64,000 nucleotides of DNA. It comes from Escherichia coli. GTDB lineage: Bacteria > Pseudomonadota > Gammaproteobacteria > Enterobacterales > Enterobacteriaceae. Positions 2,191-27,227 of this stretch are shown here, in pieces. Every line of letters begins with the position of its first letter. Position 1 is the first letter of the stretch. The notes beneath the pieces are model-generated. The model saw only the letters and a program-made list of their open reading frames with translations, did no database searches and was not told where the DNA came from. The stretch lies in NCBI RefSeq assembly GCF_003790525.1, contig NZ_CP033635.1. The stretch is one strand, 5' to 3'. A program made the translations under genes and the position numbers.

Positions 2191-2198
2191 CAGGCGTA

Positions 2199-2229: not shown

Positions 2230-2238
2230 TGTATGGTC

Positions 2239-3727: not shown

Positions 3728-3743
3728 GTTTGACATAGCATGA

Positions 3744-3765
3744 AACATAGCAAAGGCTATGTTTT
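3744..3765. promoter_or_regulatory. MntR operator-like palindrome in mntH promoter
   Basis: Perfect 9-bp inverted arms AAACATAGC / GCTATGTTT with 4-bp spacer, 12 bp upstream of the mntH start. Confidence 0.65.
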
Positions 3766-3767
3766 AG

Positions 3768-5015
<1,248 letters not shown>

Positions 5016-5043
5016 TGGAACTGGTGTCGGAGCAGGCATCACT

Positions 5044-5079
5044 GGCGGATGCGGCGTAAAACGCCTTATCCGCCCTACG
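5044..5079. repeat. REP (repetitive extragenic palindromic) element
   Basis: ggcggatgcggcgtaaaacgccttatccgccctacg resembles the E. coli REP consensus, between convergent mntH and ypeC. Confidence 0.6.
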
Positions 5080-5082
5080 TGT

Positions 5083-5409
5083 TTAATGGCGATGTCCATG
5101 TCCGCGGCCTTTTCCGCGATGATCATCACGATCGCGCCAGCCTTCACGATAGCCACGCTCATACGCTTTACGCTTATCCCAGCCACGGTGGTAGCCATTA
5201 TCATGACGCCACCAGCGGTTCTTACGCCATTCATAATTGCGATGCCAGTAGTCACGGTCGCGCCAGTGACCACCGTCCCAGTAATTACCGTAATGATCGC
5301 GATCGCCAATTTGTAATTTGATTGATGGCAGTAGGGTGATTTCACCTGCGTTTGCCGCAAGCGGGGTAAATGCCATCAGGGCGGCCGCCAGAAACAGTGA
5401 CCTGAACAT
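5083..5409 (-). CDS. ypeC: Secreted DUF2502-family protein YpeC, 108 aa
   Basis: Signal peptide [21 protein letters not shown] followed by an Arg/Asp/His/Trp-rich repetitive region. Confidence 0.8.
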
Positions 5410-5523
5410 TGTTATTCTCCTTCACGATCGAAGCCGTCAGCGGCCTGTTAACGCAATATTACGGGGAGGTAAAGCCCCGTATCATCGCCATAACTCTTAA
5501 ATCATAAAGGAGAGCATTTTTTG

Positions 5524-6780
5524 CTAAACGTTATCGTGGGGTGGCTGTTGCTTCGGACGATTGACCATCATCATCGGCTTACCTGCTAATAACAGCCATG
5601 CCGGAAGCATGACGATACAGAGCAGCGGTAGCAATGTGGTATTGGGTACAACGACTGCCGCCATAAAAAGACTTAACCAGCCATCGCGTGTTACCACCAG
5701 CACGATGCCGAGAATAGCGCAGGAAACGGTTATTGCCGCTGGAACGGCGGGAACGTGCTCATGCAGCATCAACCCTAATGCCACCCCGACAAACACTGCC
5801 GGGAATATTCGCCCACCGCGAAAGCCGCTGGCGGCAGCAACCACGAGAGCGGCAAGTTTAATCACGGCCAGCAAAAAGTAATCGCTGGTGCTGAAAGCCT
5901 GATTTGCCACCATCTGCTGCATCTCATCCAGCCCTTTAAATAGCGAAACTGGTCCAGCAATAACCCCCAGAATACCGAGAATAAATCCGCCCACTCCCAG
6001 CATTAGCACCGGATTTTTAATCTGATGCATCATCGCGTGCAACCGTGGCAGACACCATACGGCAACCATCCCTGCTGCGATGGCAATCGCCGCCACAATT
6101 GCACCGCTGAGAATATCGGTCATCTCCATCTGCCCATAATGCGCAATGGGCAGTGAAAAATGAGGATGGAAAAACAATCCGGTGGTTAGCGCACCAGCCG
6201 CCGCCGCCATTAACGGCGCAAAGAGACGATCCCATAGCGGGACTTCACTACTGCCATTTAAGGTTTGCGAAAATATCAACGCCGCCGCAACAGGTGTGCC
6301 AAACAGCGCGCCGATGGTTCCGGCAGAGGCTAAAATAGTCCACTCCATCCGATTGACGCGCGGTAACAGACGAGCACCTATCGCAACCGCAAGGGCGATA
6401 TTGACGGTCATGATCGGATGTTCCGGCCCCAGGCTGACGCCGCCAGCAAGACCGAGAATTAATGCTACGATAAGTCCTGGTAGCGCAGAGGGCGGAACCG
6501 GCGCGCCGATCAGCGGTTCACAGGCGGGGTCTGGTCCAGCATGCCCCTGGCTGAAACGGATAACCAACCCCACCGCAATACCTGTTAGCGTTAATATGGC
6601 GATGATCCAGAAAGGTGAATCCTGGGCTATCCCCAGAGTTCCCGGCAGTCGTAGCCAGAGCAAATTCTGTAATACCGAGGCGATTTTCATCACCACAATC
6701 AGAATAAGACTGGACGCAATCCCAATTGCCACGGCGGGGAGCGATAATAACAACATGGTTCTGGCTCGCGGATGGAGCAT
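5524..6780 (-). CDS. yfeO: ClC-family ion channel-like membrane protein YfeO, 418 aa
   Basis: Highly hydrophobic, Gly/Ala-rich multi-TM translation; position between ypeC and glk. Confidence 0.85.
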
Positions 6781-6983
6781 GTTCTATTCCTTATGCGGGG
6801 TCAGATACTTAGTTTGCCCAGCTTGCAAAAAGGCATCGCTGCAATTGGTGCTGAAACGATAAAGTAATTGTGTGACCCAGATCGATATTTACAGGGAGCC
6901 TGCCTTTCCGGCGTTGTTGTTATGCCCCCAGGTATTTACAGTGTGAGAAAGAATTATTTTGACTTTAGCGGAGCAGTTGAAGA

Positions 6984-7949
6984 ATGACAAAGTATGCATT
7001 AGTCGGTGATGTGGGCGGCACCAACGCACGTCTTGCTCTGTGTGATATTGCCAGTGGTGAAATCTCGCAGGCTAAGACCTATTCAGGGCTTGATTACCCC
7101 AGCCTCGAAGCGGTCATTCGCGTTTATCTTGAAGAACATAAGGTCGAGGTGAAAGACGGCTGTATTGCCATCGCTTGCCCAATTACCGGTGACTGGGTGG
7201 CAATGACCAACCATACCTGGGCGTTCTCAATTGCCGAAATGAAAAAGAATCTCGGTTTTAGCTATCTGGAAATTATTAACGATTTTACTGCTGTATCGAT
7301 GGCGATCCCGATGCTGAAAAAAGAGCATCTGATTCAGTTTGGTGGCGCAGAACCGGTAGAAGGTAAGCCTATTGCGGTTTACGGTGCCGGAACGGGGCTA
7401 GGGGTTGCGCATCTGGTCCATGTCGATAAGCGTTGGGTAAGCTTGCCAGGCGAAGGCGGTCACGTTGATTTTGCGCCGAATAGTGAAGAAGAGGGCATTA
7501 TCCTCGAAATACTGCGTGCAGAAATTGGTCATGTTTCGGCAGAGCGCGTGCTTTCTGGCCCTGGGCTGGTGAATTTGTATCGCGCAATTGTTAAAGCCGA
7601 CAACCGCCTGCCAGAAAATCTCAAGCCAAAAGATATTACCGAACGCGCGCTGGCTGACAGCTGCACCGATTGCCGCCGCGCGTTGTCGCTGTTTTGCGTC
7701 ATTATGGGCCGTTTTGGCGGCAATCTGGCGCTCAATCTCGGGACATTTGGCGGCGTGTTTATTGCCGGTGGTATCGTGCCGCGCTTCCTTGAGTTCTTCA
7801 AAGCCTCTGGTTTCCGTGCCGCATTTGAAGATAAAGGGCGCTTTAAAGAATATGTCCATGATATTCCGGTGTATCTCATCGTCCATGACAATCCGGGCCT
7901 TCTCGGTTCCGGCGCACATTTACGCCAGACCTTAGGCCACATTCTGTAA
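6984..7949 (+). CDS. glk: Glucokinase, 321 aa
   Basis: N-terminal [14 protein letters not shown] sugar-kinase ATP-binding motif; length matches Glk. Confidence 0.93.
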
Positions 7950-7964
7950 ATCCTTCCTGTCAAA

Positions 7965-7995
7965 TCGGGAGATAACTCTCCCGATAATCTTTTAA
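7965..7995 (+). terminator. Rho-independent terminator after glk
   Basis: Hairpin tcgggag-ataac-tctcccga followed by a T-rich tract. Confidence 0.6.
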
Positions 7996-8167
7996 ATCAT
8001 ACAGTTAATTCAATTTTTCTTTGTGTCACCTCACAAGGCCGACCTGCGTCACACTTCCGTACAGCGGGATTAATTCTCCAGTAAATGCATTATTTGTCTG
8101 GTAACGGCGATTTGTTTTGCACGTTCATAATTTCACTCGTCAACTATCACTGAACGAGGAATTAACG

Positions 8168-8494
8168 ATGAGTAAGAAACTGATTGCTTTATGTGCCTGC
8201 CCGATGGGTCTGGCTCACACCTTTATGGCAGCCCAGGCGCTGGAAGAAGCGGCGGTGGAAGCAGGCTATGAAGTGAAAATTGAAACTCAGGGCGCGGACG
8301 GCATCCAGAATCGCCTGACCGCGCAGGATATCGCCGAAGCGACCATCATCATCCACTCCGTGGCGGTTACCCCGGAAGATAACGAACGTTTCGAATCACG
8401 CGACGTTTATGAAATCACTTTGCAGGACGCAATTAAAAACGCTGCGGGCATCATCAAAGAAATCGAAGAGATGATTGCCTCTGAACAACAGTAA
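8168..8494 (+). CDS. fryB: PTS fructose-like IIB component FryB, 108 aa
   Basis: Start taken at MSKKLIALCACPMG (Cys phosphorylation-site motif of PTS IIB); the track ORF has a 17-codon upstream extension. Confidence 0.85.
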   Translation: MSKKLIALCACPMGLAHTFMAAQALEEAAVEAGYEVKIETQGADGIQNRLTAQDIAEATIIIHSVAVTPEDNERFESRDVYEITLQDAIKNAAGIIKEIEEMIASEQQ

Positions 8495-8515
8495 TATTCG
8501 ACAGGGATAATTGTT

Positions 8516-9763
8516 ATGGCCATTAAAAAACGCAGTGCAACCGTTGTGCCTGGCGCATCCGGTGCGGCAGCGGCAGTTAAGAATCCGCAGGCCTCTAAAA
8601 CCAGCTTCTGGGGTGAACTCCCGCAGCATGTGATGTCAGGGATTTCACGCATGGTGCCGACCTTAATTATGGGCGGTGTGATCCTCGCTTTCAGCCAGCT
8701 GATTGCTTATAGCTGGCTTAAAATTCCTGCTGATATCGGCATCATGGATGCTCTTAATAGCGGGAAATTCTCCGGTTTCGACCTCTCCTTACTGAAATTT
8801 GCCTGGTTGTCGCAGTCCTTCGGCGGCGTGTTGTTTGGTTTTGCCATTCCGATGTTTGCTGCATTTGTGGCGAACTCTATCGGTGGCAAACTGGCGTTCC
8901 CGGCTGGTTTTATCGGTGGGTTGATGTCTACCCAGCCGACGCAACTGCTGAACTTCGATCCCAGCACTATGCAATGGGCGACCTCTTCGCCGGTACCGTC
9001 CACCTTCATTGGTGCCCTGATTATTTCTATCGTTGCTGGTTACCTTGTGAAGTGGATGAACCAGAAAATCCAGTTACCGGATTTCCTGTTAGCGTTCAAA
9101 ACCACATTTTTGCTACCGATTCTTTCCGCCATTTTTGTCATGCTGGCGATGTACTACGTCATCACCCCCTTTGGTGGCTGGATCAACGGCGGTATCCGTA
9201 CCGTGCTGACTGCCGCAGGTGAGAAGGGCGCGCTGATGTACGCGATGGGGATCGCCGCGGCGACAGCAATCGACCTTGGTGGCCCGATCAACAAAGCAGC
9301 TGGTTTCGTTGCCTTCAGCTTTACCACTGACCACGTATTACCGGTTACCGCGCGTTCCATCGCTATTGTTATTCCGCCGATTGGTCTGGGTCTGGCGACC
9401 ATTATCGACCGCCGTTTAACCGGCAAACGTCTGTTCAGTGCTCAGCTTTATCCGCAGGGTAAAACCGCCATGTTCCTGGCGTTTATGGGGATCAGTGAAG
9501 GTGCGATTCCGTTTGCACTGGAAAGTCCCATCACCGCCATTCCGTCCTATATGGTTGGCGCGATTGTCGGCTCAACCGCTGCAGTCTGGCTGGGCGCAGT
9601 GCAATGGTTCCCGGAGTCCGCTATCTGGGCATGGCCGCTGGTCACTAACCTCGGCGTCTATATGGCGGGGATCGCGCTGGGAGCAGTCATTACTGCGCTG
9701 ATGGTGGTGTTCCTGCGTCTGATGATGTTCCGCAAAGGCAAATTGTTAATCGATAGCCTGTAA
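8516..9763 (+). CDS. fryC: PTS fructose-like IIC permease FryC, 415 aa
   Basis: Multi-TM permease translation directly downstream of fryB. Confidence 0.88.
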
Positions 9764-9777
9764 GAAGGACAATCCTG

Positions 9778-10863
9778 ATGACATTACTCGCTTCGCTGCG
9801 CGACTGGCTTAAGGCGCAACAACTGGATGCGGTGCTTCTCTCCTCACGGCAGAACAAACAGCCGCATCTGGGGATCTCCACCGGATCAGGCTATGTGCTG
9901 ATTAGCCGTGAAAGTGCGCACATTCTGGTGGACTCGCGCTATTACGCGGATGTAGAAGCCCGCACGCAAGGCTACCAGCTGCATTTGCTTGACGCGACGC
10001 ACACGCTTGCAACCATCGCCAGGCAAATCATTGCCGATGAGCAGTTAAAAACGCTCGGTTTTGAAGGCCAGCAGGTGAGTTGGGAAACCGCGCACCGCTG
10101 GCAGTCTGAACTCAATGCGAAACTGGTAAGCGCCACGCCGGATGTGCTGCGGCAAATCAAAACGCCAGAGGAGGTGGAGAAAATCCGCCTCGCCTGTGGG
10201 ATTGCCGATCGCGGTGCAGAGCATATTCGCCGCTTTATTCAGGCGGGAATGAGCGAGCGCGAGATAGCCGCTGAACTGGAGTGGTTTATGCGCCAGCAGG
10301 GCGCAGAAAAAGCCTCTTTCGATACCATTGTCGCCAGCGGCTGGCGTGGGGCGCTGCCGCACGGCAAAGCCAGCGACAAGATTGTTGCAGCGGGCGAGTT
10401 TGTCACTCTTGATTTTGGTGCGCTGTATCAGGGCTACTGCTCTGATATGACGCGCACCTTGCTGGTGAATGGCGAAGGGGTGAGCGCCGAATCTCACCCG
10501 CTGTTTGACGTCTATCAGATTGTTTTGCAGGCACAGCTCGCGGCAATCTCCGCGATTCGCCCCGGCGTGCGCTGCCAGCAGGTTGACGACGCCGCGCGCC
10601 GGGTGATTACCGAGGCTGGATTTGGCGACTATTTCGGTCATAACACCGGTCATGCTATCGGCATTGAAGTCCATGAAGGTCCGCGTTTTTCACCGCGGGA
10701 CACCACGACGCTACAGCCAGGCATGTTACTGACCGTGGAGCCGGGGATTTATTTGCCAGGGCAAGGGGGCGTGCGCATCGAAGATGTTGTGCTGGTCACC
10801 CCGCAAGGCGCAGAAGTGCTCTACGCCATGCCGAAAACAGTGTTGCTCACGGGAGAGGCATAA
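9778..10863 (+). CDS. ypdF: Xaa-Pro aminopeptidase (M24 family) YpdF, 361 aa
   Basis: Creatinase/prolidase-fold translation with metal-ligand His/Glu/Asp pattern; operon context. Confidence 0.85.
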
Positions 10864-11900
10864 TGGATTTATCGCTATTAAAAGCGTTGAGCGAGGCAGA
10901 TGCGATCGCCTCCTCGGAACAGGAAGTACGGCAGATCCTGCTGGAAGAAGCGGATCGCCTGCAAAAAGAAGTGCGATTTGACGGCCTGGGATCGGTGCTG
11001 ATCCGCCTCAATGAATCGACAGGTCCGAAGGTGATGATCTGTGCACATATGGATGAAGTGGGATTTATGGTGCGCAGCATCTCCCGCGAAGGGGCGATTG
11101 ATGTGCTGCCAGTTGGCAACGTGCGCATGGCTGCCCGACAGCTTCAGCCGGTGCGCATCACCACCCGTGAAGAGTGCAAAATACCTGGCCTGCTTGACGG
11201 CGACCGGCAGGGGAATGACGTCAGCACCATGCGCGTGGACATTGGCGCGCGCTCGTGTGACGAAGTGATGCAGGCGGGAATTCGTCCAGGCGATCGCGTC
11301 ACCTTCGATACCACTTTTCAGGTTCTCCCTCACCAGCGGGTGATGGGGAAAGCCTTTGATGACCGCCTCGGTTGCTACCTGCTGGTGACGTTACTACGTG
11401 AGCTGCACGACGCCGAACTGCCTGCGGAAGTATGGCTGGTGGCAAGTTCCAGCGAAGAGGTGGGATTACGCGGCGGGCAAACTGCCACCCGCGCGGTGTC
11501 GCCGGATGTCGCCATTGTGCTTGATACCGCCTGCTGGGCGAAAAACTTTGATTATGGCGCGGCTAACCATCGTCAGATTGGTAACGGGCCGATGCTGGTG
11601 TTAAGCGATAAATCGCTGATTGCGCCGCCAAAACTTACCGCGTGGATTGAAACCGTGGCGGCAGAAATTGGCGTGCCGTTACAGGCAGATATGTTCAGCA
11701 ACGGCGGCACGGACGGTGGAGCGGTGCATTTAACCGGCACTGGCGTACCCACAGTGGTGATGGGGCCAGCCACCCGCCACGGACATTGCGCGGCATCGAT
11801 TGCCGATTGTCGCGACATTTTGCAGATGCAGCAACTTTTATCTGCCCTTATTCAACGTCTTACGCGTGAGACGGTTGTTCAACTGACGGATTTCAGATGA
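10863..11900 (+). CDS. ypdE: M42-family aminopeptidase YpdE, 345 aa
   Basis: Start codon overlaps the ypdF stop; M42 peptidase-like translation. Confidence 0.85.
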
Positions 11901-11924
11901 TCTCCTGATTAACCCGGAGCGGTT

Positions 11925-14420
11925 ATGCTAACGATTCAATTTCTCTGTCCTCTGCCTAACGGTCTGCATGCTCGTCCGGCGTGGGAACTTAAAGAACAGT
12001 GCAGCCAGTGGCAAAGCGAAATCACCTTCATCAACCATCGCCAGAACGCAAAGGCAGATGCGAAAAGCTCGCTGGCGCTGATTGGCACCGGCACCCTATT
12101 TAATGACAGTTGCAGCCTGAACATTAGCGGCAGCGATGAAGAGCAGGCGCGGCGCGTGCTGGAAGAGTACATCCAGGTGCGCTTTATCGACAGCGACAGC
12201 GTCCAGCCAACGCAGGCAGAACTGACAGCGCATCCGCTGCCGCGTTCATTAAGCCGTCTGAACCCGGATTTACTGTACGGCAATGTGCTGGCAAGCGGCG
12301 TCGGCGTGGGTACGCTGACCCTGTTACAGAGCGACAGCCTCGACAGTTATCGGGCCATCCCGGCCAGTGCGCAAGACTCCACCCGGCTGGAGCACAGCCT
12401 GGCAACGCTTGCCGAGCAACTGAACCAGCAACTGCGCGAGCGTGACGGCGAAAGCAAAACTATCCTCAGCGCCCATTTGTCGCTGATCCAGGATGATGAA
12501 TTTGCAGGCAATATCCGTCGCCTGATGGCAGAACAGCATCAGGGGCTGGGGGCGGCGATCATCAGCAATATGGAGCAGGTTTGCGCCAAACTATCTGCTT
12601 CTGCCAGCGATTATCTGCGCGAGCGGGTCAGCGACATTCGCGATATCAGCGAACAGTTACTGCATATCACCTGGCCGGAACTGAAACCGCGCAACAATCT
12701 GGTGCTGGAAAAACCGACTATTCTGGTGGCTGAAGATTTAACCCCAAGCCAGTTTTTGAGCCTCGATTTAAAAAATCTTGCGGGCATGATTCTGGAGAAA
12801 ACCGGGCGCACCTCGCATACCCTGATCCTGGCCCGCGCTTCGGCGATCCCGGTACTGAGCGGCCTGCCGCTGGATGCGATTGCCCGTTATGCCGGGCAAC
12901 CTGCAGTGCTTGACGCCCAGTGCGGCGTGCTGGCGATTAACCCGAATGACGCGGTGAGCGGTTATTATCAGGTCGCGCAGACGCTGGCGGATAAACGCCA
13001 AAAACAACAGGCGCAGGCGGCCGCGCAGCTGGCCTATTCCCGTGATAACAAGCGTATTGATATTGCGGCGAATATCGGCACCGCTCTGGAAGCGCCAGGC
13101 GCGTTTGCCAACGGCGCGGAAGGTGTCGGGCTGTTTCGTACCGAAATGCTCTATATGGATCGCGACAGCGCGCCGGACGAGCAGGAGCAATTTGAAGCCT
13201 ACCAGCAGGTGCTACTGGCGGCGGGCGACAAGCCGATTATCTTCCGCACGATGGACATCGGCGGCGATAAAAGCATTCCTTACCTCAACATTCCCCAGGA
13301 AGAGAACCCGTTCCTCGGCTATCGCGCGGTACGTATTTACCCGGAATTTGCTGGCCTGTTCCGCACTCAACTGCGGGCGATTTTGCGTGCTGCCTGTTTC
13401 GGCAACGCCCAGTTGATGATCCCGATGGTTCACAGCCTCGATCAGATCTTATGGGTGAAGGGCGAGATCCAAAAAGCGATCGTTGAGCTTAAGCGCGATT
13501 GCCTGCGTCATGCAGAGACGATTACGCTGGGTATCATGGTGGAAGTGCCGTCGGTGTGCTACATCATCGATCACTTCTGCGATGAGGTCGATTTCTTCAG
13601 TATCGGCTCCAACGATATGACCCAGTATCTGTATGCGGTCGATCGTAATAACCCGCGCGTATCGCCGCTGTATAACCCGATTACGCCATCGTTCCTGCGC
13701 ATGTTGCAGCAGATTGTTACCACTGCGCATCAGCGGGGTAAATGGGTAGGTATTTGCGGTGAACTGGGCGGTGAAAGCCGTTATCTTCCGCTACTGCTTG
13801 GGCTGGGCCTGGACGAGCTGAGTATGAGTAGCCCGCGCATTCCGGCGGTGAAAAGCCAGCTTCGTCAACTGGATAGCGAGGCGTGTCGGGAACTGGCGCG
13901 TCAGGCATGTGAATGCCGCAGTGCGCAGGAAATTGAAGCGTTACTCACCGCCTTTACGCCGGAAGAAGACGTTCGCCCACTGCTGGCGCTGGAGAATATC
14001 TTTGTTGATCAGGCTTTTAGCAATAAAGAGCAGGCGATCCAGTTCCTGTGCGGTAACCTCGGCGTTAACGGGCGCACTGAACATCCGTTCGAGCTGGAAG
14101 AGGATGTCTGGCAGCGGGAAGAGATTGTTACCACCGGCGTTGGTTTTGGCGTAGCGATCCCGCACACCAAATCTCAGTGGATCCGTCATTCCAGTATCAG
14201 CATTGCCCGGCTGGTGAAACCGGTTGACTGGCAGTCAGAAATGGGCGAAGTCGAACTGGTGATCATGCTGACACTGGGCGCTAACGAAGGGATGAATCAT
14301 GTGAAAGTCTTCTCGCAGCTGGCGCGTAAACTGGTGAATAAAAACTTCCGCCAGTCGCTGTTCGCCGCGCAAGATGCGCAAAGCATCCTGACGCTGCTGG
14401 AAACGGAATTAACCTTCTGA
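11925..14420 (+). CDS. fryA: PTS multiphosphoryl transfer protein FryA (HPr - Enzyme I - IIA fusion), 831 aa
   Basis: N-terminal HPr-like region (CPLPNGLHARPA), central PEP-utilising Enzyme I region, C-terminal IIA-like domain. Confidence 0.88.
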   Translation: MLTIQFLCPLPNGLHARPAWELKEQCSQWQSEITFINHRQNAKADAKSSLALIGTGTLFNDSCSLNISGSDEEQARRVLEEYIQVRFIDSDSVQPTQAELTAHPLPRSLSRLNPDLLYGNVLASGVGVGTLTLLQSDSLDSYRAIPASAQDSTRLEHSLATLAEQLNQQLRERDGESKTILSAHLSLIQDDEFAGNIRRLMAEQHQGLGAAIISNMEQVCAKLSASASDYLRERVSDIRDISEQLLHITWPELKPRNNLVLEKPTILVAEDLTPSQFLSLDLKNLAGMILEKTGRTSHTLILARASAIPVLSGLPLDAIARYAGQPAVLDAQCGVLAINPNDAVSGYYQVAQTLADKRQKQQAQAAAQLAYSRDNKRIDIAANIGTALEAPGAFANGAEGVGLFRTEMLYMDRDSAPDEQEQFEAYQQVLLAAGDKPIIFRTMDIGGDKSIPYLNIPQEENPFLGYRAVRIYPEFAGLFRTQLRAILRAACFGNAQLMIPMVHSLDQILWVKGEIQKAIVELKRDCLRHAETITLGIMVEVPSVCYIIDHFCDEVDFFSIGSNDMTQYLYAVDRNNPRVSPLYNPITPSFLRMLQQIVTTAHQRGKWVGICGELGGESRYLPLLLGLGLDELSMSSPRIPAVKSQLRQLDSEACRELARQACECRSAQEIEALLTAFTPEEDVRPLLALENIFVDQAFSNKEQAIQFLCGNLGVNGRTEHPFELEEDVWQREEIVTTGVGFGVAIPHTKSQWIRHSSISIARLVKPVDWQSEMGEVELVIMLTLGANEGMNHVKVFSQLARKLVNKNFRQSLFAAQDAQSILTLLETELTF

Positions 14421-14422
14421 CG

Positions 14423-15280
14423 TTAGCCCTGAAAACGGGCGCTGTACTCTCCCGGCGTCAGGCCAAACTGACGCCGGAAAATGCGACAAAAATAGTCGCT
14501 GTCCGGAAAACCGCAACGCTGTGCCACTTCATGAATCGACAGATGATATTTCTGCAAAATCATCCTTGCCTTTGCCATTCGTACCCAGCGAACATACTCG
14601 ATAAAACGCATTGTTCCATGCTGAGCAAACAGTTTTGACAGATGATTGGGCGTGATATTAAAAAACTGAGCCACGCTCTCGCGGGTGAGCTGCTGGGCAT
14701 AATTATCCTGAACCCAGTTACAAATGCTGTGATAGAGAAAATCGCCGCGCGGCTGCGAATTGCCCGGTGGCATATTCACCACGTTGCGGCAAAGATGCAG
14801 CAAACTTAACACCAGTGGCTGAATGATATTCTGCTCCAGCGGCGAACGGCTAAGATGGGTGAGGGCGGTAAGCATCGCTTCACCTTCGCCGCGTTGCAGG
14901 CTGGGAAGCTGGATCTGGCGGGCAGGATGCAACAACGACGTGGTGCGGCTATCGTAAAACGATAACCCAAGCCAGGTCGGTGCGAACACCAGGCTTAACA
15001 GCATCACCGGTTTGTTGTTGACCGGTAAATTAGCCGCGCGTGCCGGAATAAACAGCATTTCTCCTTCCACCATACGTTGCTGCTTTGCTTCCAGCAGATT
15101 GCCGTATTCGCCGCGTAGCACGATATCCAGACGGGGAAAATCAATACATAAACTGCCCACTGGCAATGAGGCAGGCTGGCTGGCAAACCAGACGCGCCCC
15201 AGTAGTTGCGGGTTAAGCACCAGGCCGCTGAACAGATCGGCGAAAAATTGTTGATCGGCGGGCAAGCCTGGTGCTTTCAT
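14423..15280 (-). CDS. ypdC: AraC-family transcriptional regulator YpdC, 285 aa
   Basis: C-terminal AraC-type HTH signature; convergent with fryA with a 2-bp gap. Confidence 0.85.
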   Translation of the reverse strand: MKAPGLPADQQFFADLFSGLVLNPQLLGRVWFASQPASLPVGSLCIDFPRLDIVLRGEYGNLLEAKQQRMVEGEMLFIPARAANLPVNNKPVMLLSLVFAPTWLGLSFYDSRTTSLLHPARQIQLPSLQRGEGEAMLTALTHLSRSPLEQNIIQPLVLSLLHLCRNVVNMPPGNSQPRGDFLYHSICNWVQDNYAQQLTRESVAQFFNITPNHLSKLFAQHGTMRFIEYVRWVRMAKARMILQKYHLSIHEVAQRCGFPDSDYFCRIFRRQFGLTPGEYSARFQG

Positions 15281-15292
15281 GAAAGTTCCCGA

Positions 15293-16044
15293 TTAAAGAT
15301 GCATTAACTGGCGGAATTCTTTAACTTTGCTGCGGCTGACCGGCACTTCAAAATCCAGATCTTTCAGCCGCAGAATGTAGGTGTTATTAAACCACGGTTC
15401 GATCTCGCGGATTTTGTTCAGATTGACACAAAATGAGCGATGGCAGCGGAAAAATGCGACGGCGGCAGCTTGCTGCAAAACTCGGTAATGTTCATCGGCA
15501 TTACGTAGGATTCACGCCGCGTATAGACAAAGGTCATTTTCTCATGCGCTTCGGCGTAATAGATATCGTTAATTGGCGTGACGATGATTCGCTCATCTTT
15601 CACCAGATTAATGGTGTCATTCTCACGCGTTACCGTCGTGGCAGGCGTACTGCTGGTCTGCTGTTGTTGCCAGGCTGCTTCCAGTTTTTGTAGCATCCCG
15701 GTAATGCGTGACTCCTGATACGGTTTGAGAATGTAGTCAAACGCCTCCAGTTCAAACGCTTCTACCGCATGTTCTTTCCATGCGGTGATAAACACAATAA
15801 ACGGTTTATGGGCGAACTGGCTGATGTTTTGCGCCAGCAACACGCCATCCAGCGACGGAATATTGATATCCAGAAAAATGGCGTCGACGCGGTTATGCTG
15901 CAAAAACTTCAACACGTCCAGACCGTCGTCAAAGGTGCCGACAATCTCCATCTGGCTGTGCTCTTTAATTAGCCAGCTCAGTTCCTGTTGTGCCAGGAAT
16001 TCGTCTTCAACAATGATGACTTTCACAATATCACTCCGGCTCAA
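15293..16044 (-). pseudogene. ypdB: LytTR-family response regulator YpdB, split by a -1 frameshift in a homopolymer run
   Basis: Receiver domain is ORF 15418..16044 (208 aa, stops after PPSHFSAAIAHFVSI); the LytTR C-terminus (FRCHRSFCVNL...) continues in another frame as ORF 15293..15478. The two join if the 5-nt A run at + strand 15440..15444 were 6 nt. Confidence 0.6.
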
Positions 16045-17738
16045 AGCAATAACGTAGCCTGTGAGGCGACTGGGGTGCGTTGGTTAGGAATGTAAAACGC
16101 AATTTCCGTTCCTGGTTCCAGGCGGCGGATATGCAGCCCCTCGCCATACAATAACTTCACGCGATGATGGACATTCAGCAGACCAATTTTATTGCCCGGC
16201 ATTTCGTTCGCTTCGACCCGCTCAATGACTTTTGGATCGATGCCGTGCCCGGTGTCTCGCACCGCAATGCGTACCCGATTACCGCACTCTGCAACGCTGA
16301 TGGTGACAACGCCTTTACCTTTGCAAGGCTGAATACCGTGGACAATGGCATTCTCCACCAACGGCTGGATCAGCAGGCTGGGAATGCAGCAATTCACCTC
16401 TTCATCAATATCATAGATAACCGTCAGCTTGTCGCCAAAGCGGGCCTGCTCAATGGCAATATAGTCTTTAATTTGATACAGCTCTTTTTTGATATCGATT
16501 TGCTCATCGTCTTTTAATTCAATGTTATAGCGCAGATAACGCGACAGATTAAAGATCAGCTGGCGAGCGGTATCCGGATTCAGACGGATTGACGATGAAA
16601 TAGCGTTCAGAGCGTTAAACAGAAAATGGGGATTAATTTTGCTTTGCAGCGCGCGAAGCTCTGCCTTATTTGCCATTTCACGTAACTGCTCGGCACGCGA
16701 AACCTCCAGTTGCGTGGAGATGATTTGCGACAGACCGACCGCCATTTCCTGTAATGATGACGTAATCTGATGCGCGTGGCAGTAGTAAATTTTCAGTGTT
16801 CCGGTCACAACGCCTTTCTCCCACAATGGGATCACCAGCATGGAATGAATCTCTGGTGTGCGGTGGGCTTCATCATTGTTTTTAATGATGATTTTTCCGT
16901 AATTCATCGCCTGTCGGGTAGTCGGGCTAATGAAGTCATCGCCATTCTGATAGTTGTGTTCACCCACGCCGACATAGGCCAGCACATGATCAGTATTAGT
17001 AATCGCCACCGCATCGGCGTGAATGTCATCGCGGATAATTTCGCAGACCTTGCGTAATGACTCGCTATTGACATGGCGAAACAGCGGCAGCGTTTTGTTG
17101 GCAATATCCAGCGCCAGCTTGGCCTGCCGCGCGGCGCTGGCCTCTTTTTCGCCCTCAACGCTTTGCACCAGCAGCACAATAAAGCCGATACAGACGCTAC
17201 CGAGGATCATTGGAATCCCGATTTTAGAGACGATATCGATCCCCAACGCGGTAGTTGGTGCCCAGACAATCACCAGAATCATGGTCAACGTTTCACATAA
17301 CATGCCGCCGAGAATACCGACGCGCCAGCGCTGTGCTTTAGGGATTTTCAGGTTGATCCAGCCCGATATACAACCCGCCAGAATGCTGGTGATAAAGCAG
17401 GGGATCGCCGTCACGCCGCCGATATCAATTAAATAACGGTGAATACCTGCGATCACGCCGGTAATAATGCCTACCCACGGGCCAAACAGAATTCCGCCTG
17501 ACATCACCGCGATAATACGTACGTTCACCAGCGAGCCTTCTACGGGAACGCCGGACCAGGTGCTGAACAGGGCGAACAGCGAGAAAATGGCGGTAACGGC
17601 GAGCAGCTCTTTCGGTGAGTGTGCCGACTTGTGCAACAGTTCGCGAAACAGGCGGATACGGATGAGAAAGAACAGGCAGATAAGCATTAACGCTGCCCGA
17701 TCGAAGACCGCCAGCAGCATGTTGAATATTTCGTGCAC
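16041..17738 (-). CDS. ypdA: LytS-type sensor histidine kinase YpdA, 565 aa
   Basis: N-terminal multi-TM domain, H-box and ATPase region; stop overlaps ypdB start by 4 bp. Confidence 0.88.
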
Positions 17739-18114
17739 GGGTGACTCTGAATAAGGATTAAACCTCTATGATAGGTAACCTGAAGGCTGATGACCAGCAG
17801 GCCGTTTTTGAGGAAAAACCACAATTTTAAAAGGGGATTGAAAGATAAATGGTGTATTAGCAATGCATCTCTTGATAATGCACATCTGGTTGGTAAATTT
17901 ATTGAAATTATAATGTTAATAAAATGAGTGGTAATTTTCTTGTTAGCGTAGATAAATTTCCTGTTTTTGAAGTGGAGTTCCTCATTTAAAACCATTGATA
18001 AAAATGTTCTAAAACGCTGGACAGACAGAAATTAATCAGGCTATTTTCAAAACAGCCACCATCGTGGCAGCGTCGCTCGGACGGTCCGGGCGCTAACGTT
18101 AATCTGAGGAAATT

Positions 18115-19353
18115 ATGGCTGACACTCGCCCTGAACGTCGCTTTACGCGTATTGATCGTCTCCCGCCCTACGTTTTTAATATTACCGCTGAACTGAAAAT
18201 GGCTGCGCGTCGGCGCGGCGAAGATATTATCGATTTCAGTATGGGTAACCCGGACGGTGCGACTCCGCCGCATATCGTCGAAAAATTATGTACGGTGGCC
18301 CAGCGCCCGGACACGCATGGTTACTCCACGTCGCGCGGCATTCCGCGGTTACGTCGCGCCATTTCCCGCTGGTATCAGGATCGCTACGGCGTTGAGATCG
18401 ACCCGGAATCAGAAGCTATCGTCACCATTGGTTCGAAAGAGGGACTGGCGCATCTGATGCTGGCGACGCTGGATCATGGTGACACTGTACTGGTGCCTAA
18501 TCCAAGCTACCCGATTCATATTTACGGCGCGGTGATTGCCGGGGCGCAGGTACGCTCAGTGCCGCTGGTGGAAGGTGTCGATTTCTTCAACGAACTGGAA
18601 CGCGCCATTCGCGAAAGTTATCCGAAACCGAAGATGATGATCCTCGGCTTCCCGTCGAACCCAACCGCGCAATGCGTGGAGCTGGAATTCTTTGAGAAGG
18701 TTGTGGCGCTGGCGAAACGCTACGATGTGCTGGTGGTCCATGACCTGGCCTATGCCGATATCGTCTACGATGGCTGGAAAGCGCCGTCAATCATGCAGGT
18801 GCCAGGTGCACGCGATGTGGCGGTCGAGTTCTTTACGCTGTCGAAAAGTTACAACATGGCGGGCTGGCGTATCGGCTTTATGGTCGGTAACAAAACGCTG
18901 GTCAGCGCGTTGGCACGTATTAAAAGCTATCACGATTACGGCACCTTTACGCCGTTGCAGGTGGCAGCGATTGCGGCGCTGGAGGGCGATCAACAGTGCG
19001 TGCGCGACATTGCTGAACAGTACAAACGCCGCCGTGATGTACTGGTAAAAGGGCTGCATGAAGCGGGCTGGATGGTCGAAATGCCGAAGGCTTCGATGTA
19101 TGTCTGGGCGAAAATCCCGGAACCATATGCGGCCATGGGTTCACTGGAATTTGCCAAGAAGCTGCTTAACGAAGCGAAGGTCTGTGTCTCTCCAGGGATT
19201 GGCTTTGGCGACTACGGCGACACCCATGTTCGCTTTGCACTGATTGAAAACCGCGATCGTATTCGCCAGGCGATTCGTGGAATTAAAGCGATGTTCCGTG
19301 CCGACGGTTTACTACCCGCCAGCAGCAAACATATTCACGAAAACGCGGAATAA
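18115..19353 (+). CDS. alaC: Glutamate-pyruvate aminotransferase AlaC (YfdZ), 412 aa
   Basis: Class I aminotransferase translation including the PLP-lysine region [14 protein letters not shown]. Confidence 0.9.
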
Positions 19354-19374
19354 ACACCATCGCCAGAAATGCAA

Positions 19375-19401
19375 ACAGGAGCCAGATGGCTCCTGTTTTT
19401 C
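19375..19401 (+). terminator. Rho-independent terminator after alaC
   Basis: Hairpin acaggagcc-agat-ggctcctgt followed by tttt. Confidence 0.7.
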
Positions 19402-19844
19402 ATTGCACAGTTTGCTTTTAGATCATCAGGGCAAAAGTACCGGCCCAAACGATGACCATAAAAGAAATGCCCATAAAGAAATATTTCACTTTACATCTCT
19501 CCGCGTAATTACTGTTACGCCTGAATGACTTCATTACACCTGATACAGTGAGTTGACACCGGGCAAAACGACCTTAAAAGTCCTGTATTTTACCGTGGGC
19601 ATCACCCCAGAATTCTGAGCTAAACTGCTCCAGACGGCGCTAATGTACGCCTAAAACTGAAACGAGACAAGAGGCATTTTCTTATTTACTTTTAGTAACT
19701 TACAGGTGTCTCATATCGGCGACAGTTTAATTTCTGACGGTAATAATTAGAGATTCAGCGAAGGAAAAAACCTTAAGAAAAAAGCCATAAAAACCATGAG
19801 GTTATTATGGCTGATTTGAGGAGGGAAAGAGTAAGAGCAGTTTG

Positions 19845-20765
19845 TTAAATGTATAGCGACGATTCTCCCACCGGGCGCGTTTTAAAGCGACGGTGGATCC
19901 ATAGGTACTGCTCCGGTGCGCGCATGATCTCTTTTTCGATAATCTTGTTCATATAGGCAGCGGCTTGATTTTCATCTGCCGGGTAGCCTTCCATCTCTGG
20001 GGTGATGTACAAACGATATCCGCTGTAATCCGCTTTTCTTACCATCGTTACGGTTAACATGGCTGCGCCAGAGAGACGTGAAAGGACATACGTACCATTG
20101 GTTGTGGCAACATTTTCCACCGCAAAGAACGGCGCGAAGGAGCTGCCTTTACGACCATAATCCTGATCGGGAGCAAACCATACCGCTTCACCTTTCTTCA
20201 GTGCACCGACAATGCCGCGCAGATTATTTCTGCCGATCATCGCTTTGTTAGAGCGCATGCGACCACGGGTCTGCACCCATTCCATCAGCTGATTATTATG
20301 TGGACGATAGGTGGCCATCATTGGCTGACAAAGTCCCATCACGCGGCCGCCCAGTTCCAGCGACATAAAATGGACGCCGACAACCATTACGCCGCGATTT
20401 TGCATTTGTGCGCGTTTAAGATTATCCAACCCTTCAACATCAAACCATTTACGTACGCGACTGTCGGGCCAGAACCACGCCATGCCGGTTTCTACCAGCG
20501 CCATGCCGAGTGAACGAAAGTTTTCGGCAATCATCTTCTCGCGTTCTTCCGCAGAATGCTGCGGGAAACAAAGTTCCAGGTTTTTACGGGCGATAGATTC
20601 ACGCCGTTTCAGGAATGGTCGCGCCATTGCGCCAATACGCGTGCCGAGAAAGCAGAGAACAGGATAAGGAAGTTGTACCCAAAGCCAGAGTACACCAAGC
20701 CCAAACCATGTGAGCCAGTAGCGAGGATGCAGAAACTCGCGGGAAAATTTGCATTGTGGAAACAT
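19845..20765 (-). CDS. lpxP: Lipid A palmitoleoyltransferase LpxP, 306 aa from Met MFPQCKF
   Basis: LpxL/LpxM-family late acyltransferase translation; the track ORF carries a 22-codon N-terminal extension. Confidence 0.85.
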   Translation of the reverse strand: MFPQCKFSREFLHPRYWLTWFGLGVLWLWVQLPYPVLCFLGTRIGAMARPFLKRRESIARKNLELCFPQHSAEEREKMIAENFRSLGMALVETGMAWFWPDSRVRKWFDVEGLDNLKRAQMQNRGVMVVGVHFMSLELGGRVMGLCQPMMATYRPHNNQLMEWVQTRGRMRSNKAMIGRNNLRGIVGALKKGEAVWFAPDQDYGRKGSSFAPFFAVENVATTNGTYVLSRLSGAAMLTVTMVRKADYSGYRLYITPEMEGYPADENQAAAYMNKIIEKEIMRAPEQYLWIHRRFKTRPVGESSLYI

Positions 20766-21117
20766 AGTTACCTTCTGTAGATACGAATTGTTGTATCGCA
20801 GAAGATTCCATGTCGACAGCGGTACACTCAATTGATTAGGCCATCATGTACGACAATGGTTCCTGTAAAGAGTGTAAAGACTAGTCAGGACATAACCACG
20901 AGGAGCATGAATGCGGTGGCTCTACTTTATCACTGGCTGACTGCTTTCAGCTACTGATTATTAATCGTGCAAAGTAAAAAGTTTTCCGCACGCAATAGCG
21001 TTGCATTTAACGTGCTGTTTTCATTGATGCTTAGCAAAAATTGCCAGAGGTTAAGGATTGTCTTACTATTAAAGTGACTGAAGTTACAGGTTTTTTAGCG
21101 CGGCAGGAGGTTGAGCT

Positions 21118-21360
21118 ATGATTTATTTATGGATGTTTCTCGCCCTGTGTATTGTCTGCGTAAGCGGATACATCGGTCAGGTCCTGAACGTGGTCTCGGC
21201 GGTCTCTTCTTTCTTCGGCATGGTGATCCTCGCTGCACTCATTTACTACTTCACCATGTGGTTAACTGGCGGTAATGAACTAGTGACGGGGATATTTATG
21301 TTTCTTGCCCCGGCTTGTGGCTTGATGATTCGCTTTATGGTGGGGTATGGCAGGCGCTAG
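21118..21360 (+). CDS. yfdY: Small membrane protein YfdY, 80 aa
   Basis: Two predicted TM helices; position between lpxP and ypdI. Confidence 0.7.
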   Translation: MIYLWMFLALCIVCVSGYIGQVLNVVSAVSSFFGMVILAALIYYFTMWLTGGNELVTGIFMFLAPACGLMIRFMVGYGRR

Positions 21361-21436
21361 TGGGTCAGGATGGTTCATTTGGGCAGGTGTTCACATCAGC
21401 ATCAGGCATGATTGTTCACCTGCCATGTGACAGACG

Positions 21437-21712
21437 CTATCGCACAGGATGGATAAGATAATTCGCCTTTGTCGGAAAAGGGGGCGGAATTTCATCTGTG
21501 AGGTTTAATGGTGGCGCATCTTCTCTCATTTTTAACAAAATCGCCTGTGATGGCTGAAATTTTGTAGAATGAGTTGTCGTCATCATTGACGTTTTTTCTG
21601 TCTCTTTATAGCTCGCCTCACTACCACCACCAGAAATAGAAAATGCAAAAACATTGCATGCCATAATAGAGACCAATAAAAATAAGCTAAAAAGCATTAA
21701 GTTTACTTTCAT
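21437..21712 (-). CDS. ypdI: Small lipoprotein YpdI, 91 aa
   Basis: Signal peptide with lipobox-like IMAC; position between yfdY and yfdX. Confidence 0.7.
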   Translation of the reverse strand: MKVNLMLFSLFLLVSIMACNVFAFSISGGGSEASYKETEKTSMMTTTHSTKFQPSQAILLKMREDAPPLNLTDEIPPPFPTKANYLIHPVR

Positions 21713-21854
21713 AGAAAGTTATCCTGAAAATGGTTCACTGAAAACCTACGACGTTATTGCTGTATTTACATATAATTAATCAGTATTTACATCGATATAA
21801 TAAATGACATCTCTTTTTGGTATATAAGAATAGTTCTCTGTGACAGGAAGCATA

Positions 21855-21872
21855 TTCCTACAACTGTAAGAC
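21855..21872. promoter_or_regulatory. EvgA box-like 18-bp inverted repeat upstream of yfdX
   Basis: TTCCTACA-AC-TGTAAGAC matches TTCYTACA-N2-TGTARGAA at 17 of 18 positions; a weaker second copy lies at 21893..21910. Confidence 0.6.
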
Positions 21873-22007
21873 TAAATGCCGCTTTGCGATAATAACTACA
21901 GTTGTAAGATAACCCTTTCAAAATGTCCGTTGCTCTCTGATTTCTCATTTCATGCTCACCCAATATGATGGCGGCGTTTTCTAAAACTGTTAAAGAATGA
22001 GGTAAGT

Positions 22008-22631
22008 ATGAAACGTTTAATTATGGCTACGATGGTCACAGCAGTTCTGGCATCTTCAACTGTATGGGCTGCTGATAATGCACCGGTAGCGGCACAACAG
22101 CAAACTCAGCAAGTTCAGCAAACGGCAGCAGCAGAGCGTATCTCTGAACAAGGTTTATATGCGATGCGTGACGTGCAGGTAGCGCGCCTGGCTCTGTTTC
22201 ATGGCGATCCGGAAAAGGCAAAAGAACTGACCAATGAAGCTTCCGCTTTGTTGTCAGATGACAGTACCGAATGGGCAAAGTTCGCAAAGCCAGGTAAAAA
22301 GACCAATGTCAATGATGACCAATATATTGTCATTAATGCATCTGTCGGAATTTCTGAGAGTTATGTAGCGACACCTGAAAAAGAAGCCGCGATAAAAATT
22401 GCCAACGAAAAAATGGCGAAAGGGGATAAAAAGGGCGCAATGGAAGAGCTTCGCCTGGCCGGTGTTGGTGTAATGGAAAACCAATATCTGATGCCGCTTA
22501 AACAGACTCGTAATGCACTTGCTGATGCGCAGAAACTGCTTGATAAAAAGCAATACTACGAGGCAAACCTGGCGCTTAAAGGTGCGGAAGATGGAATCAT
22601 CGTCGATAGCGAAGCACTGTTTGTGAACTAA
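22008..22631 (+). CDS. yfdX: Periplasmic protein YfdX, 207 aa
   Basis: Signal peptide [21 protein letters not shown]; first gene of the EvgA-regulated oxalate cluster. Confidence 0.82.
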
Positions 22632-22874
22632 AGCTGACAGGCAATATATTGAGGTAAAGGATTTTACTCCCTCCAGCCGACAATTTTTTATGGCCACAAT
22701 ACGACAGGTTGTGGCCATAAAATTATTTGGCGCTCGCGGTTCTATAAACTCGAATTTTATCTTCCTCAAAGTAAACCGCAATAATCCCGTGTTATCACAA
22801 ATCATTTATTATGTTATGTTTTATGGTACGCTTTAAAAAGCGTAATCATACCCTTACTTGTAAATCACTGGCGC

Positions 22875-22892
22875 TTCTTACAGTTGTAAGAA
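22875..22892. promoter_or_regulatory. EvgA box (perfect 18-bp palindrome) between yfdX and frc
   Basis: TTCTTACA-GT-TGTAAGAA is a perfect match to the EvgA consensus inverted repeat. Confidence 0.65.
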
Positions 22893-23142
22893 TAACATCA
22901 CAAATGTCGCGGCTCTCTCTGATTACCGCGAGCCAATATTTATCATATTCTTCTTTTCGTCCTCACTACTTACCATGCAGAAAGGAATTGGAAGTAGCGA
23001 TGAAATGATTTTCAGTACTTGATACAGGAATTTAAAAATATCGAGTGCAGCTACGACGATATTTTGCGGATTATTTATAGAGGCGTTATGTCTTAAATAA
23101 ACGCTAAATTAACACATATTTAATTAACTAATAGGTATTGCT

Positions 23143-24393
23143 ATGTCAACTCCACTTCAAGGAATTAAAGTTCTCGATTTCACCGGTGTGCAATCTGGCC
23201 CATCTTGTACTCAAATGCTGGCCTGGTTTGGCGCTGACGTCATTAAAATTGAACGTCCCGGCGTTGGTGACGTAACGCGTCACCAGCTGCGAGATATTCC
23301 TGATATCGATGCGCTTTACTTCACCATGCTTAACAGTAACAAACGTTCTATTGAATTAAATACCAAAACAGCGGAAGGCAAAGAGGTAATGGAAAAGCTG
23401 ATCCGCGAAGCTGATATCTTAGTCGAGAACTTTCATCCTGGGGCCATTGATCACATGGGCTTCACCTGGGAGCATATTCAAGAAATCAATCCACGTCTGA
23501 TTTTTGGTTCGATCAAAGGGTTTGATGAGTGTTCGCCTTATGTGAATGTAAAAGCCTATGAAAACGTTGCTCAGGCAGCGGGTGGCGCGGCATCCACTAC
23601 GGGTTTTTGGGACGGTCCGCCGCTGGTAAGCGCTGCAGCGTTGGGTGACAGCAACACCGGAATGCATTTACTGATCGGTTTACTTGCTGCTTTGCTGCAT
23701 CGCGAAAAAACGGGGCGTGGGCAACGAGTCACCATGTCAATGCAGGATGCCGTATTGAACCTTTGCCGCGTGAAATTACGCGACCAGCAGCGTCTCGATA
23801 AATTGGGTTATCTGGAAGAATACCCGCAGTATCCGAATGGCACATTTGGTGATGCAGTTCCCCGCGGAGGTAATGCGGGTGGTGGCGGTCAGCCTGGCTG
23901 GATCCTGAAATGTAAAGGCTGGGAAACCGATCCTAATGCCTATATTTATTTCACTATTCAGGAGCAAAACTGGGAAAACACCTGTAAAGCTATCGGCAAA
24001 CCAGAATGGATTACCGATCCGGCATACAGTACAGCCCATGCCCGACAGCCACATATTTTCGATATTTTTGCTGAAATCGAAAAATACACTGTCACTATTG
24101 ATAAACATGAAGCTGTGGCCTATTTGACTCAGTTTGATATTCCTTGTGCACCGGTTTTAAGTATGAAAGAAATTTCACTTGATCCCTCTTTGCGCCAAAG
24201 TGGCAGTGTTGTCGAAGTGGAACAACCGTTGCGTGGAAAATATCTGACAGTTGGTTGTCCAATGAAATTCTCTGCCTTTACGCCGGATATTAAAGCTGCG
24301 CCGCTATTAGGTGAACATACCGCTGCTGTATTGCAGGAGCTGGGTTATAGCGACGATGAAATTGCTGCAATGAAGCAAAACCACGCCATCTGA
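23143..24393 (+). CDS. frc: Formyl-CoA:oxalate CoA-transferase, 416 aa
   Basis: Family III CoA-transferase translation; paired with oxc downstream. Confidence 0.9.
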
Positions 24394-24446
24394 TATTAAC
24401 GGGGGCTTCTGGCTCCCAATTTATAAAAATTTCGAGGTTATTAATC

Positions 24447-26141
24447 ATGTCAGATCAACTTCAAATGACAGATGGTATGCATATCATCGTTGAAGCATTA
24501 AAACAGAATAATATTGACACTATTTATGGTGTTGTAGGTATTCCTGTGACGGATATGGCACGCCATGCCCAGGCGGAAGGCATTCGTTATATTGGTTTTC
24601 GTCATGAGCAGTCGGCAGGCTATGCCGCTGCGGCAAGCGGTTTTCTTACCCAAAAACCAGGGATCTGCCTGACAGTGTCTGCGCCAGGATTCCTCAATGG
24701 TTTGACCGCATTGGCCAACGCAACGGTAAATGGTTTTCCGATGATCATGATTAGCGGCTCCAGCGACCGCGCGATCGTCGACCTACAGCAAGGTGATTAT
24801 GAAGAGCTGGACCAAATGAATGCGGCAAAACCGTATGCCAAAGCAGCATTCCGCGTTAATCAGCCGCAGGATCTTGGCATTGCATTGGCACGCGCTATCC
24901 GGGTCTCAGTATCGGGTCGCCCTGGCGGAGTTTATCTTGATTTGCCAGCAAATGTCCTGGCCGCGACGATGGAAAAAGACGAAGCGTTAACCACGATTGT
25001 AAAAGTTGAAAATCCGTCGCCAGCATTATTGCCATGCCCGAAGTCAGTCGCTAGCGCAATTTCGCTTTTAGCAAAAGCTGAACGACCATTAGTTATCCTT
25101 GGCAAAGGCGCGGCGTATTCACAAGCTGATGAACAGCTTCGTGAATTTATTGAAAGTGCCCAGATTCCATTCCTGCCAATGTCTATGGCGAAAGGGATCC
25201 TGGAAGATACACATCCACTTTCTGCGGCAACTGCGCGTTCGTTTGCCCTGGCAAATGCTGACGTTGTCATGCTTGTTGGTGCACGACTGAATTGGTTACT
25301 GGCACACGGTAAAAAAGGATGGGCGGCAGATACACAGTTTATTCAACTGGATATTGAACCGCAGGAAATTGACAGCAACCGCCCCATTGCTGTGCCAGTC
25401 GTTGGCGATATTGCATCCAGTATGCAAGGTATGCTGGCAGAACTGAAACAAAACACATTTACGACTCCACTGGTATGGCGCGATATTTTAAATATCCACA
25501 AGCAGCAAAATGCACAAAAAATGCATGAAAAGTTAAGTACAGATACCCAACCATTAAATTACTTTAATGCATTGAGTGCCGTGCGCGATGTTTTGCGCGA
25601 GAACCAGGATATTTATTTAGTTAATGAAGGGGCAAATACCCTGGATAATGCACGAAATATTATTGATATGTATAAACCACGTCGTCGTCTGGATTGTGGC
25701 ACCTGGGGTGTCATGGGCATCGGTATGGGCTATGCCATCGGTGCTAGCGTGACCTCTGGTTCTCCGGTTGTCGCCATTGAAGGTGATAGTGCTTTTGGTT
25801 TCAGTGGGATGGAGATTGAAACGATTTGTCGATATAACCTGCCGGTGACGATCGTTATTTTTAATAATGGCGGCATCTACAGAGGAGACGGTGTTGATCT
25901 CAGTGGCGCTGGTGCACCATCACCAACAGATCTGTTGCACCATGCAAGGTATGACAAATTAATGGATGCGTTTCGTGGCGTTGGCTATAACGTCACCACG
26001 ACAGATGAACTTCGTCATGCTTTAACCACCGGTATTCAGTCGCGCAAACCGACCATTATTAATGTGGTCATCGACCCTGCAGCAGGAACTGAAAGTGGCC
26101 ATATTACCAAACTTAACCCAAAACAAGTCGCTGGTAATTAA
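24447..26141 (+). CDS. oxc: Oxalyl-CoA decarboxylase (ThDP-dependent), 564 aa
   Basis: Thiamine-diphosphate enzyme translation including the [14 protein letters not shown] cofactor-binding motif. Confidence 0.9.
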
Positions 26142-26209
26142 ATACTGACATCGTCTCCTCTTGCCAACTCATTATCGATGGTGAGGGGACCCTTATCGGA
26201 AATACTATT

Positions 26210-27154
26210 ATGCTAACATTTTTTATTGGCGATTTATTGCCTATTATCGTAATCATGCTGTTGGGTTATTTTAGCGGCAGACGAGAAACTTTTTCAGAAG
26301 ATCAAGCCCGGGCATTTAATAAACTGGTATTAAACTACGCTCTTCCTGCGGCCCTATTTGTTTCTATTACCCGGGCAAACAGGGAAATGATTTTTGCGGA
26401 CACTCGCCTGACCCTTGTATCACTTGTGGTTATTGTCGGATGTTTCTTTTTCTCCTGGTTTGGTTGCTACAAATTTTTTAAACGTACCCATGCAGAAGCA
26501 GCAGTATGTGCATTAATTGCAGGTTCACCTACCATCGGATTCCTGGGGTTTGCAGTTCTCGACCCTATTTATGGTGATTCCGTATCAACAGGTTTAGTGG
26601 TAGCAATTATTTCTATTATTGTTAACGCAATTACTATTCCTATTGGTCTGTATTTGTTGAATCCTTCCTCAGGAGCGGATGGTAAGAAGAATAGCAATCT
26701 GAGCGCATTAATTTCTGCGGCAAAGGAGCCAGTAGTATGGGCACCTGTTCTGGCAACGATCCTGGTGTTGGTTGGGGTAAAAATTCCGGCAGCATGGGAC
26801 CCAACCTTTAATCTGATTGCGAAGGCTAACTCAGGGGTAGCGGTATTCGCTGCGGGGTTGACTCTGGCTGCACATAAATTCGAGTTCAGTGCCGAAATTG
26901 CTTATAACACCTTCCTGAAGCTGATTCTGATGCCACTGGCGCTGCTTCTCGTGGGTATGGCATGTCATTTGAACAGCGAACATTTGCAGATGATGGTACT
27001 GGCAGGCGCCTTACCGCCGGCATTCTCCGGAATCATTATTGCCAGCCGGTTTAATGTCTATACCCGCACTGGTACAGCATCATTGGCTGTGAGCGTACTG
27101 GGCTTTGTCGTCACGGCTCCCTTGTGGATTTATGTCAGTCGACTGGTTTCATAA
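26210..27154 (+). CDS. yfdV: AEC-family transporter YfdV, 314 aa
   Basis: Multi-TM translation in the frc-oxc cluster. Confidence 0.82.
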
Positions 27155-27227
27155 TTAATCATGTTATTGATTTTACATAAATGCCGAAGTGTCTTTTCAC
27201 CTTCGGCTTTTTTCAAGGCATAAGCAA

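Follow-up and report, generated by a model that had tools for sequence, protein, structure and literature searches.

Whether ypdB has been lost from this strain of Escherichia coli, or only from its assembly, is the question raised by a single missing base. The window (the whole stretch of DNA analyzed, 64,000 nt of contig NZ_CP033635.1 from assembly GCF_003790525.1) carries ypdB on the minus strand of 15293..16044, between ypdA and ypdC, and the gene has lost its reading frame because a run of six T residues (T6) is written as five (T5). The original prediction offered two readings of this lesion, genuine inactivation or a homopolymer sequencing error, and the choice was aptly posed; the T5 allele turned out to be unique to this assembly among good-quality genomes. 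Weighing the evidence set out below, we rank a base-calling error as slightly more likely than a private knockout.

The identity of the gene is secure. Of 5,426 complete E. coli genomes, 5,422 contain an annotated ypdB that the 752-nt stretch matches, with the best matches differing from it by exactly one gap, so the likeness to ypdB is no chance resemblance; the assignment first made from the letters alone, a LytTR-type response regulator beside ypdA, is thus borne out. The gene order ypdA-ypdB-ypdC is retained, with ypdB directly downstream of the gene for its cognate LytS-type histidine kinase, ypdA (pyrS; 16041..17738, minus strand, intact, 565 aa), and followed by the third gene of the cluster, ypdC, which encodes an AraC-family regulator (14423..15280, minus strand, intact, 285 aa). 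The coding region of ypdB (pyrR) spans 15293..16026 on the minus strand and measures 734 nt, versus 735 nt in relatives. Insertion of one T into the T5 run yields a 735-nt coding sequence that is base-for-base that of ypdB in strain SMS-3-5 (WP_001298580.1, 244 aa), as had been foreseen for a restored base.

The two open reading frames into which the gene is split lie where they had been described: a 208-aa frame at 15418..16044 on the minus strand, with the C-terminal end ...PPSHFSAAIAHFVSI, and a 61-aa frame at 15293..15478 on the same strand, which holds FRCHRSFCVNL... Two details of that description had to be amended. First, the shortened run had been placed at 15440..15444 of the plus strand, which reads ATGGC there; the true AAAAA run, T5 on the coding strand and the site of the one-base loss, is found 10 bases away at 15450..15454, where it falls in codons H191-F192-F193 and is T6 in every relative. 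Second, the receiver frame had been started at position 16044. This TTG codon was rejected as the ypdB start, as it overlaps the ypdA stop and the SMS-3-5 annotation uses the GTG at 16026, which is preceded by GGAG. With GTG 16026 as the true start, the shortened product is 202 residues long, 192 of them native and 10 out of frame. Translation from this codon runs through the receiver domain to ...CSKLPPSHF, continues with SAAIAHFVSI, and ends at a stop codon at 15418..15420, from which the start of ypdC is now 137 nt away, versus 12 nt from the natural stop. The remainder of the gene (FRCHRSFCVNL...QLMHL) is stranded in the -1 frame at 15293..15449 on the minus strand and comprises residues 193/194-244, including the LytTR signature and all later strands.

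The reading frame as it stands (15418..16026, minus strand, 202 aa plus stop) therefore encodes the receiver domain, a linker, the first 47 residues of the LytTR domain, and the ten out-of-frame residues. The receiver is recognized by Pfam Response_reg (PF00072) on residues 3-112 (E = 3.4e-24), with the phospho-acceptor D53 present (...AIFLDINIP...), and PDB entry 2qv0 matches YpdB residues 1-125. In the restored protein the Pfam LytTR domain (PF04397) extends over residues 146-242; with the window's frame broken at residue 193 and ending at 202, over half of this domain is lost. Restored YpdB aligns with 3d6w from B. cereus across the whole LytTR domain (E = 2.5e-14), and in the solved domains used in the alignment (3d6w, S. 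pneumoniae ComE 4cbv, and S. aureus AgrA 3bs1) the most conserved motif lies exactly at and after the break. In YpdB this motif reads FFRCHRSFCVN and starts at the break itself; its counterparts in the alignment are FIRCHRSFIVN (3d6w) and FFRCHNSFVVN (AgrA), and restored YpdB shares the pattern FFRCH(R/N)SF(C/V)VN with AgrA and ComE. Unlike in the solved proteins, the motif and all that follows it are untranslated in the window's frame. The window's ypdB is thus ypdB by descent and, as written, a pseudogene, a complete in-frame C-terminal LytTR domain being absent. Both the extent of the loss and the position of the break, exactly before the most conserved motif, speak for a functional null should the lesion be real.

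We then placed the lesion against complete genomes. Window positions 1..51,966 align to SMS-3-5 (NC_010498.1), and the ypdB gap is the only difference in 1..51,950; further differences, at 51,956 and 51,962, fall in an imperfect copy of a tRNA-Arg 3' end at the junction with a genomic island. Thirteen further complete genomes match the window as SMS-3-5 does across these 51,966 bases, the gap being the sole difference outside the island junction. In a 24-kb search, 14 complete genomes tie for the top score, and the 12 of them that align in one piece each cover 24,002 record bases against a 24,001-base query, which leaves the ypdB gap as their only difference. The same ypdB haplotype occurs in 30 complete genomes, and T6 is found in 30 out of 30. 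Comparison with other assemblies, which the original prediction had proposed, was extended with a T5-specific 40-mer in which each 28-base seed spans the T5 run. Among 5,426 complete RefSeq E. coli genomes this probe had no match, against 5,257 for the corresponding T6 control probe. The seeds tolerate all flank variants seen in 49 fetched loci, such that these variants could not mask a T5 allele. No T5 was found in JGI metagenome contigs or among GTDB species representatives, a small denominator in which the T6 control itself reached only 25 metagenome contigs, so that this absence counts for little. Among the loci fetched, T6 came from NCBI, ENA, and metagenome assemblies and T5 solely from short Logan contigs.

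The Logan assemblies are the one public source in which the allele recurs. In the protein collection, the exact 202-aa product is encoded in Logan assemblies only (15 blocks, every contig shorter than 10 kb), whereas of the 90,199 blocks that list the adjacent intact YpdA about 96% are on contigs longer than 10 kb and about 4% on contigs as short as those with T5. The neighbor of YpdA was the intact 244-aa YpdB in ten out of ten places among the matches listed. The 208-aa version starting at TTG and the 61-aa C-terminal frame are both absent from the protein collection. The 202-aa fragment is filed there under '90% identity' with a PLP-dependent aminotransferase/GntR-type protein of 468 aa, which is unrelated to it and represents a cluster of 2,866 members. 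The grouping is apparently an artefact of how the collection was clustered, and the size of a cluster headed by an unrelated protein is uninformative on the T5 allele.

Ten T5 contigs were fetched, and they carry at least five ypdB haplotypes that are 7-14 substitutions apart, which implies several independent origins, or calls, of T5. Further indels are present in six of the ten, where they break ypdA, fryA, or ypdC (10 in 36.7 kb, mostly one-base homopolymer contractions), a density of broken genes that is not credible as biology and marks these data as error-prone. One contig (L005, run ERR15602660) matches the window's haplotype without a substitution yet has three additional indels, and a single accession series (ERR10498116, ERR10498692) yields T5 on two different haplotypes. 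Five T5 contigs come from the series SRR309494xx-97xx, where a T6 run in ypdA is also under-called: L006 and L008 (runs SRR30949556 and SRR30949657) have in common a second T6-to-T5 contraction, inside ypdA at SMS-3-5 position 2,589,546, which suggests that this accession series under-calls T6 runs systematically. In the remaining four contigs, T5 is the sole indel over 2-4.7 kb. No long clean contig with T5 was present among the Logan contigs. In public data, then, T5 is confined to fragmentary assemblies, the majority of which are demonstrably noisy.

The reading that we consider probable is a homopolymer-length miscall, in which T6 was called as T5 in the assembly and the true chromosome has an intact ypdB identical to that of SMS-3-5. 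The real chromosome would keep T6 and the assembly consensus would drop one T. The YpdA/YpdB system would work normally, pyruvate being sensed by YpdA, D53 of YpdB being phosphorylated, and the LytTR domain acting on the yhjX promoter. Three lines of evidence argue for such an error. First, errors of long-read, 454, or Ion Torrent sequencing classically show as a minus-one homopolymer change; the one seen here is missing from all close relatives and forms the sole difference from clonal relatives, with no companion SNP. Second, the T5 allele is unique among good assemblies, and the same call is repeated by noisy data. Third, a real T5 allele with public short reads would predict a long Logan contig encoding the 202-aa product, and none was found. 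Other observations count against an error. The window is otherwise clean: 88 other runs of at least 6 nt, 17 of them 7 nt and 4 of them 8 nt long, all agree with SMS-3-5, and a noisy long-read assembly should fail at the longer runs first. The four Logan contigs in which T5 is the only indel point the same way, as does the dispensability of ypdB, which is truncated in nature by a 158-aa nonsense allele. Furthermore, natural frameshifts arise most commonly by replication slippage in homopolymers. That the error sits in this particular assembly is what we infer from this balance. If it does, ypdB is not to be annotated as a pseudogene and the reads are to be checked first, and the T6 run at codons 191-193 could be flagged as a site repeatedly under-called by error-prone data sets.

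The strongest competitor, which we hold to be a tenable though less probable account, is that T5 is real: a strain-private ypdB null produced by replication slippage at T6, with a product that lacks residues 193-244, cannot bind the yhjX promoter, and leaves YpdA signaling cut off from yhjX. The clean surroundings favor it, with one difference in 52 kb and every longer homopolymer correct, together with the nature of the break itself. It is also favored by the existence of other natural ypdB nulls, such as the 158-aa product P0004, and by the likely tolerance of the loss. YpdA is the sensor of extracellular pyruvate, and YpdB, once phosphorylated at D53, binds to two repeat sequences of the yhjX promoter, with yhjX reported to be its sole direct target (PMC4847170); the system is missing from some relatives, for example Salmonella (PMC5552118). 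A sole direct target and absence from Salmonella together make loss of ypdB tolerable. Set against a real allele are its absence from every other good-quality genome (0 of 5,426), the invariable T6 in complete genomes of the same haplotype, the lack of a long clean Logan contig with T5, and the sequencing noise that accompanies T5 in six of the ten contigs inspected. A private indel with not one SNP in 52 kb is, in addition, improbable beforehand.

Were T5 real, the allele would be a null for yhjX induction with a free receiver domain left over, and the isolate would be unable to turn on the yhjX transporter gene on meeting extracellular pyruvate. The consequence would be a modest, strain-private shift in nutrient scavenging at the stationary-phase transition, and another case of two-component-system decay. 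Expression of ypdC might possibly be weakened as well, through polarity from the stop codon 137 nt upstream. A more elaborate version of a real T5 involves BtsS/BtsR, the sister pyruvate system. In it, a stable 202-aa receiver would be phosphorylated by YpdA and act as a phosphate sink or decoy without DNA binding, silencing yhjX and altering cross-talk with BtsS/BtsR in the lineage, perhaps with faint wild-type activity through -1 slippage on U5; we regard this combination as very unlikely.

The weakest account, that the T5 run is a functional recoding site (a -1 slip of tRNA-Phe on U UUU U) or a phase-variable on/off switch, has in its favor that a -1 slip on CAU UUU UCC re-reads UUC and then CGC to restore the native H-F-F-R, which makes background leakiness conceivable, but it is the least probable of all and is effectively refuted by the comparative data, in which the frameshifted arrangement is unconserved (no T5 and 5,257 T6 matches among 5,426 genomes, with no relative out of frame) and the tract length is invariant among same-haplotype genomes. 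Programmed frameshifting or an RNA element was rejected as a candidate on this want of conservation and on the local sequence: the site, T TTT TCC, departs from the X XXY YYZ heptamer pattern, no Shine-Dalgarno-like element was seen upstream of the run on reading the sequence, folding of the 80 nt downstream is no stronger than that of shuffled sequence (z = -0.58) and offers no stimulatory structure, and there is no Rfam match in 14,000..18,500. Phase variation was likewise set aside, T6 being fixed among relatives; typical contingency tracts are also longer than six bases.

Compared with known systems, a miscall or a private null would equally be nothing new in kind, as ypdB is a well-known gene and both the homopolymer miscall and the slippage pseudogene are textbook phenomena. 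The closest counterpart is E. coli YpdB itself (PyrR; WP_001298580.1; receiver structure PDB 2qv0), with the same DNA save one T and the same context of alaC, ypdA-ypdB-ypdC, and fryA. Relative to this protein, the window's product keeps the D53 receiver and the first half of the LytTR domain; the frame is broken at codon 193, and 10 unrelated residues take the place of the last 52. The Logan contigs L003-L012 share this T6-to-T5 change at precisely the same site and have other minus-one homopolymer changes nearby, whereas in 52 kb of the window the ypdB change stands alone. The nonsense allele P0004, which lies outside the window, likewise truncates YpdB inside the LytTR domain and shows that natural loss is possible. 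It ends ...DIYYA where the full-length protein has Glu159 (NCBI records CTU97602.1 and HGF5667906.1). In contrast to T5, P0004 is a substitution, is found on 73 contigs of up to 189 kb that include NCBI assemblies, and is clearly real and lineage-inherited; T5 lacks such support. A literature search on ypdB and frameshifts yielded no report of the T5 allele, the only relevant item being a genome-reduced strain in which ypdB was deleted with its neighbors. Either outcome raises no new biological question.

Beyond the ypdB locus, the window ends in a P4-like satellite island at the argW tRNA-Arg site (51,941..64,000), which begins at the imperfect tRNA 3'-end copy and is absent from SMS-3-5. It contains a PemK/MazF toxin pair (52,184..52,776), a P2-type capsid-like gene, an integrase (56,612..57,652), a toprim primase (57,619..60,312), and a second integrase at the window edge (63,195..63,998). 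Its closest match is strain GF60, at 99.1-99.5% identity, and GF60 also has an IS21 element there. The 12 kb of the island (51,967..64,000) were considered as a second test for homopolymer errors and discarded, because at this level of identity to GF60 errors are inseparable from divergence; the island indels relative to GF60 comprise one 3-nt in-frame change, two compensated pairs, and one indel between annotated GF60 genes. An island-specific 236-aa open reading frame lies at 54094..54801, and its protein is listed in 40 blocks. Upstream of the island, a region identical to SMS-3-5 (about 40,100..50,950) carries upaE, the gene for a phase-variable autotransporter adhesin (about 43,019..50,932), and the tyrosine invertase genes ipuA (about 41,427..42,056) and ipuB (about 40,109..40,678), the coordinates of all three genes being converted from the SMS-3-5 annotation.
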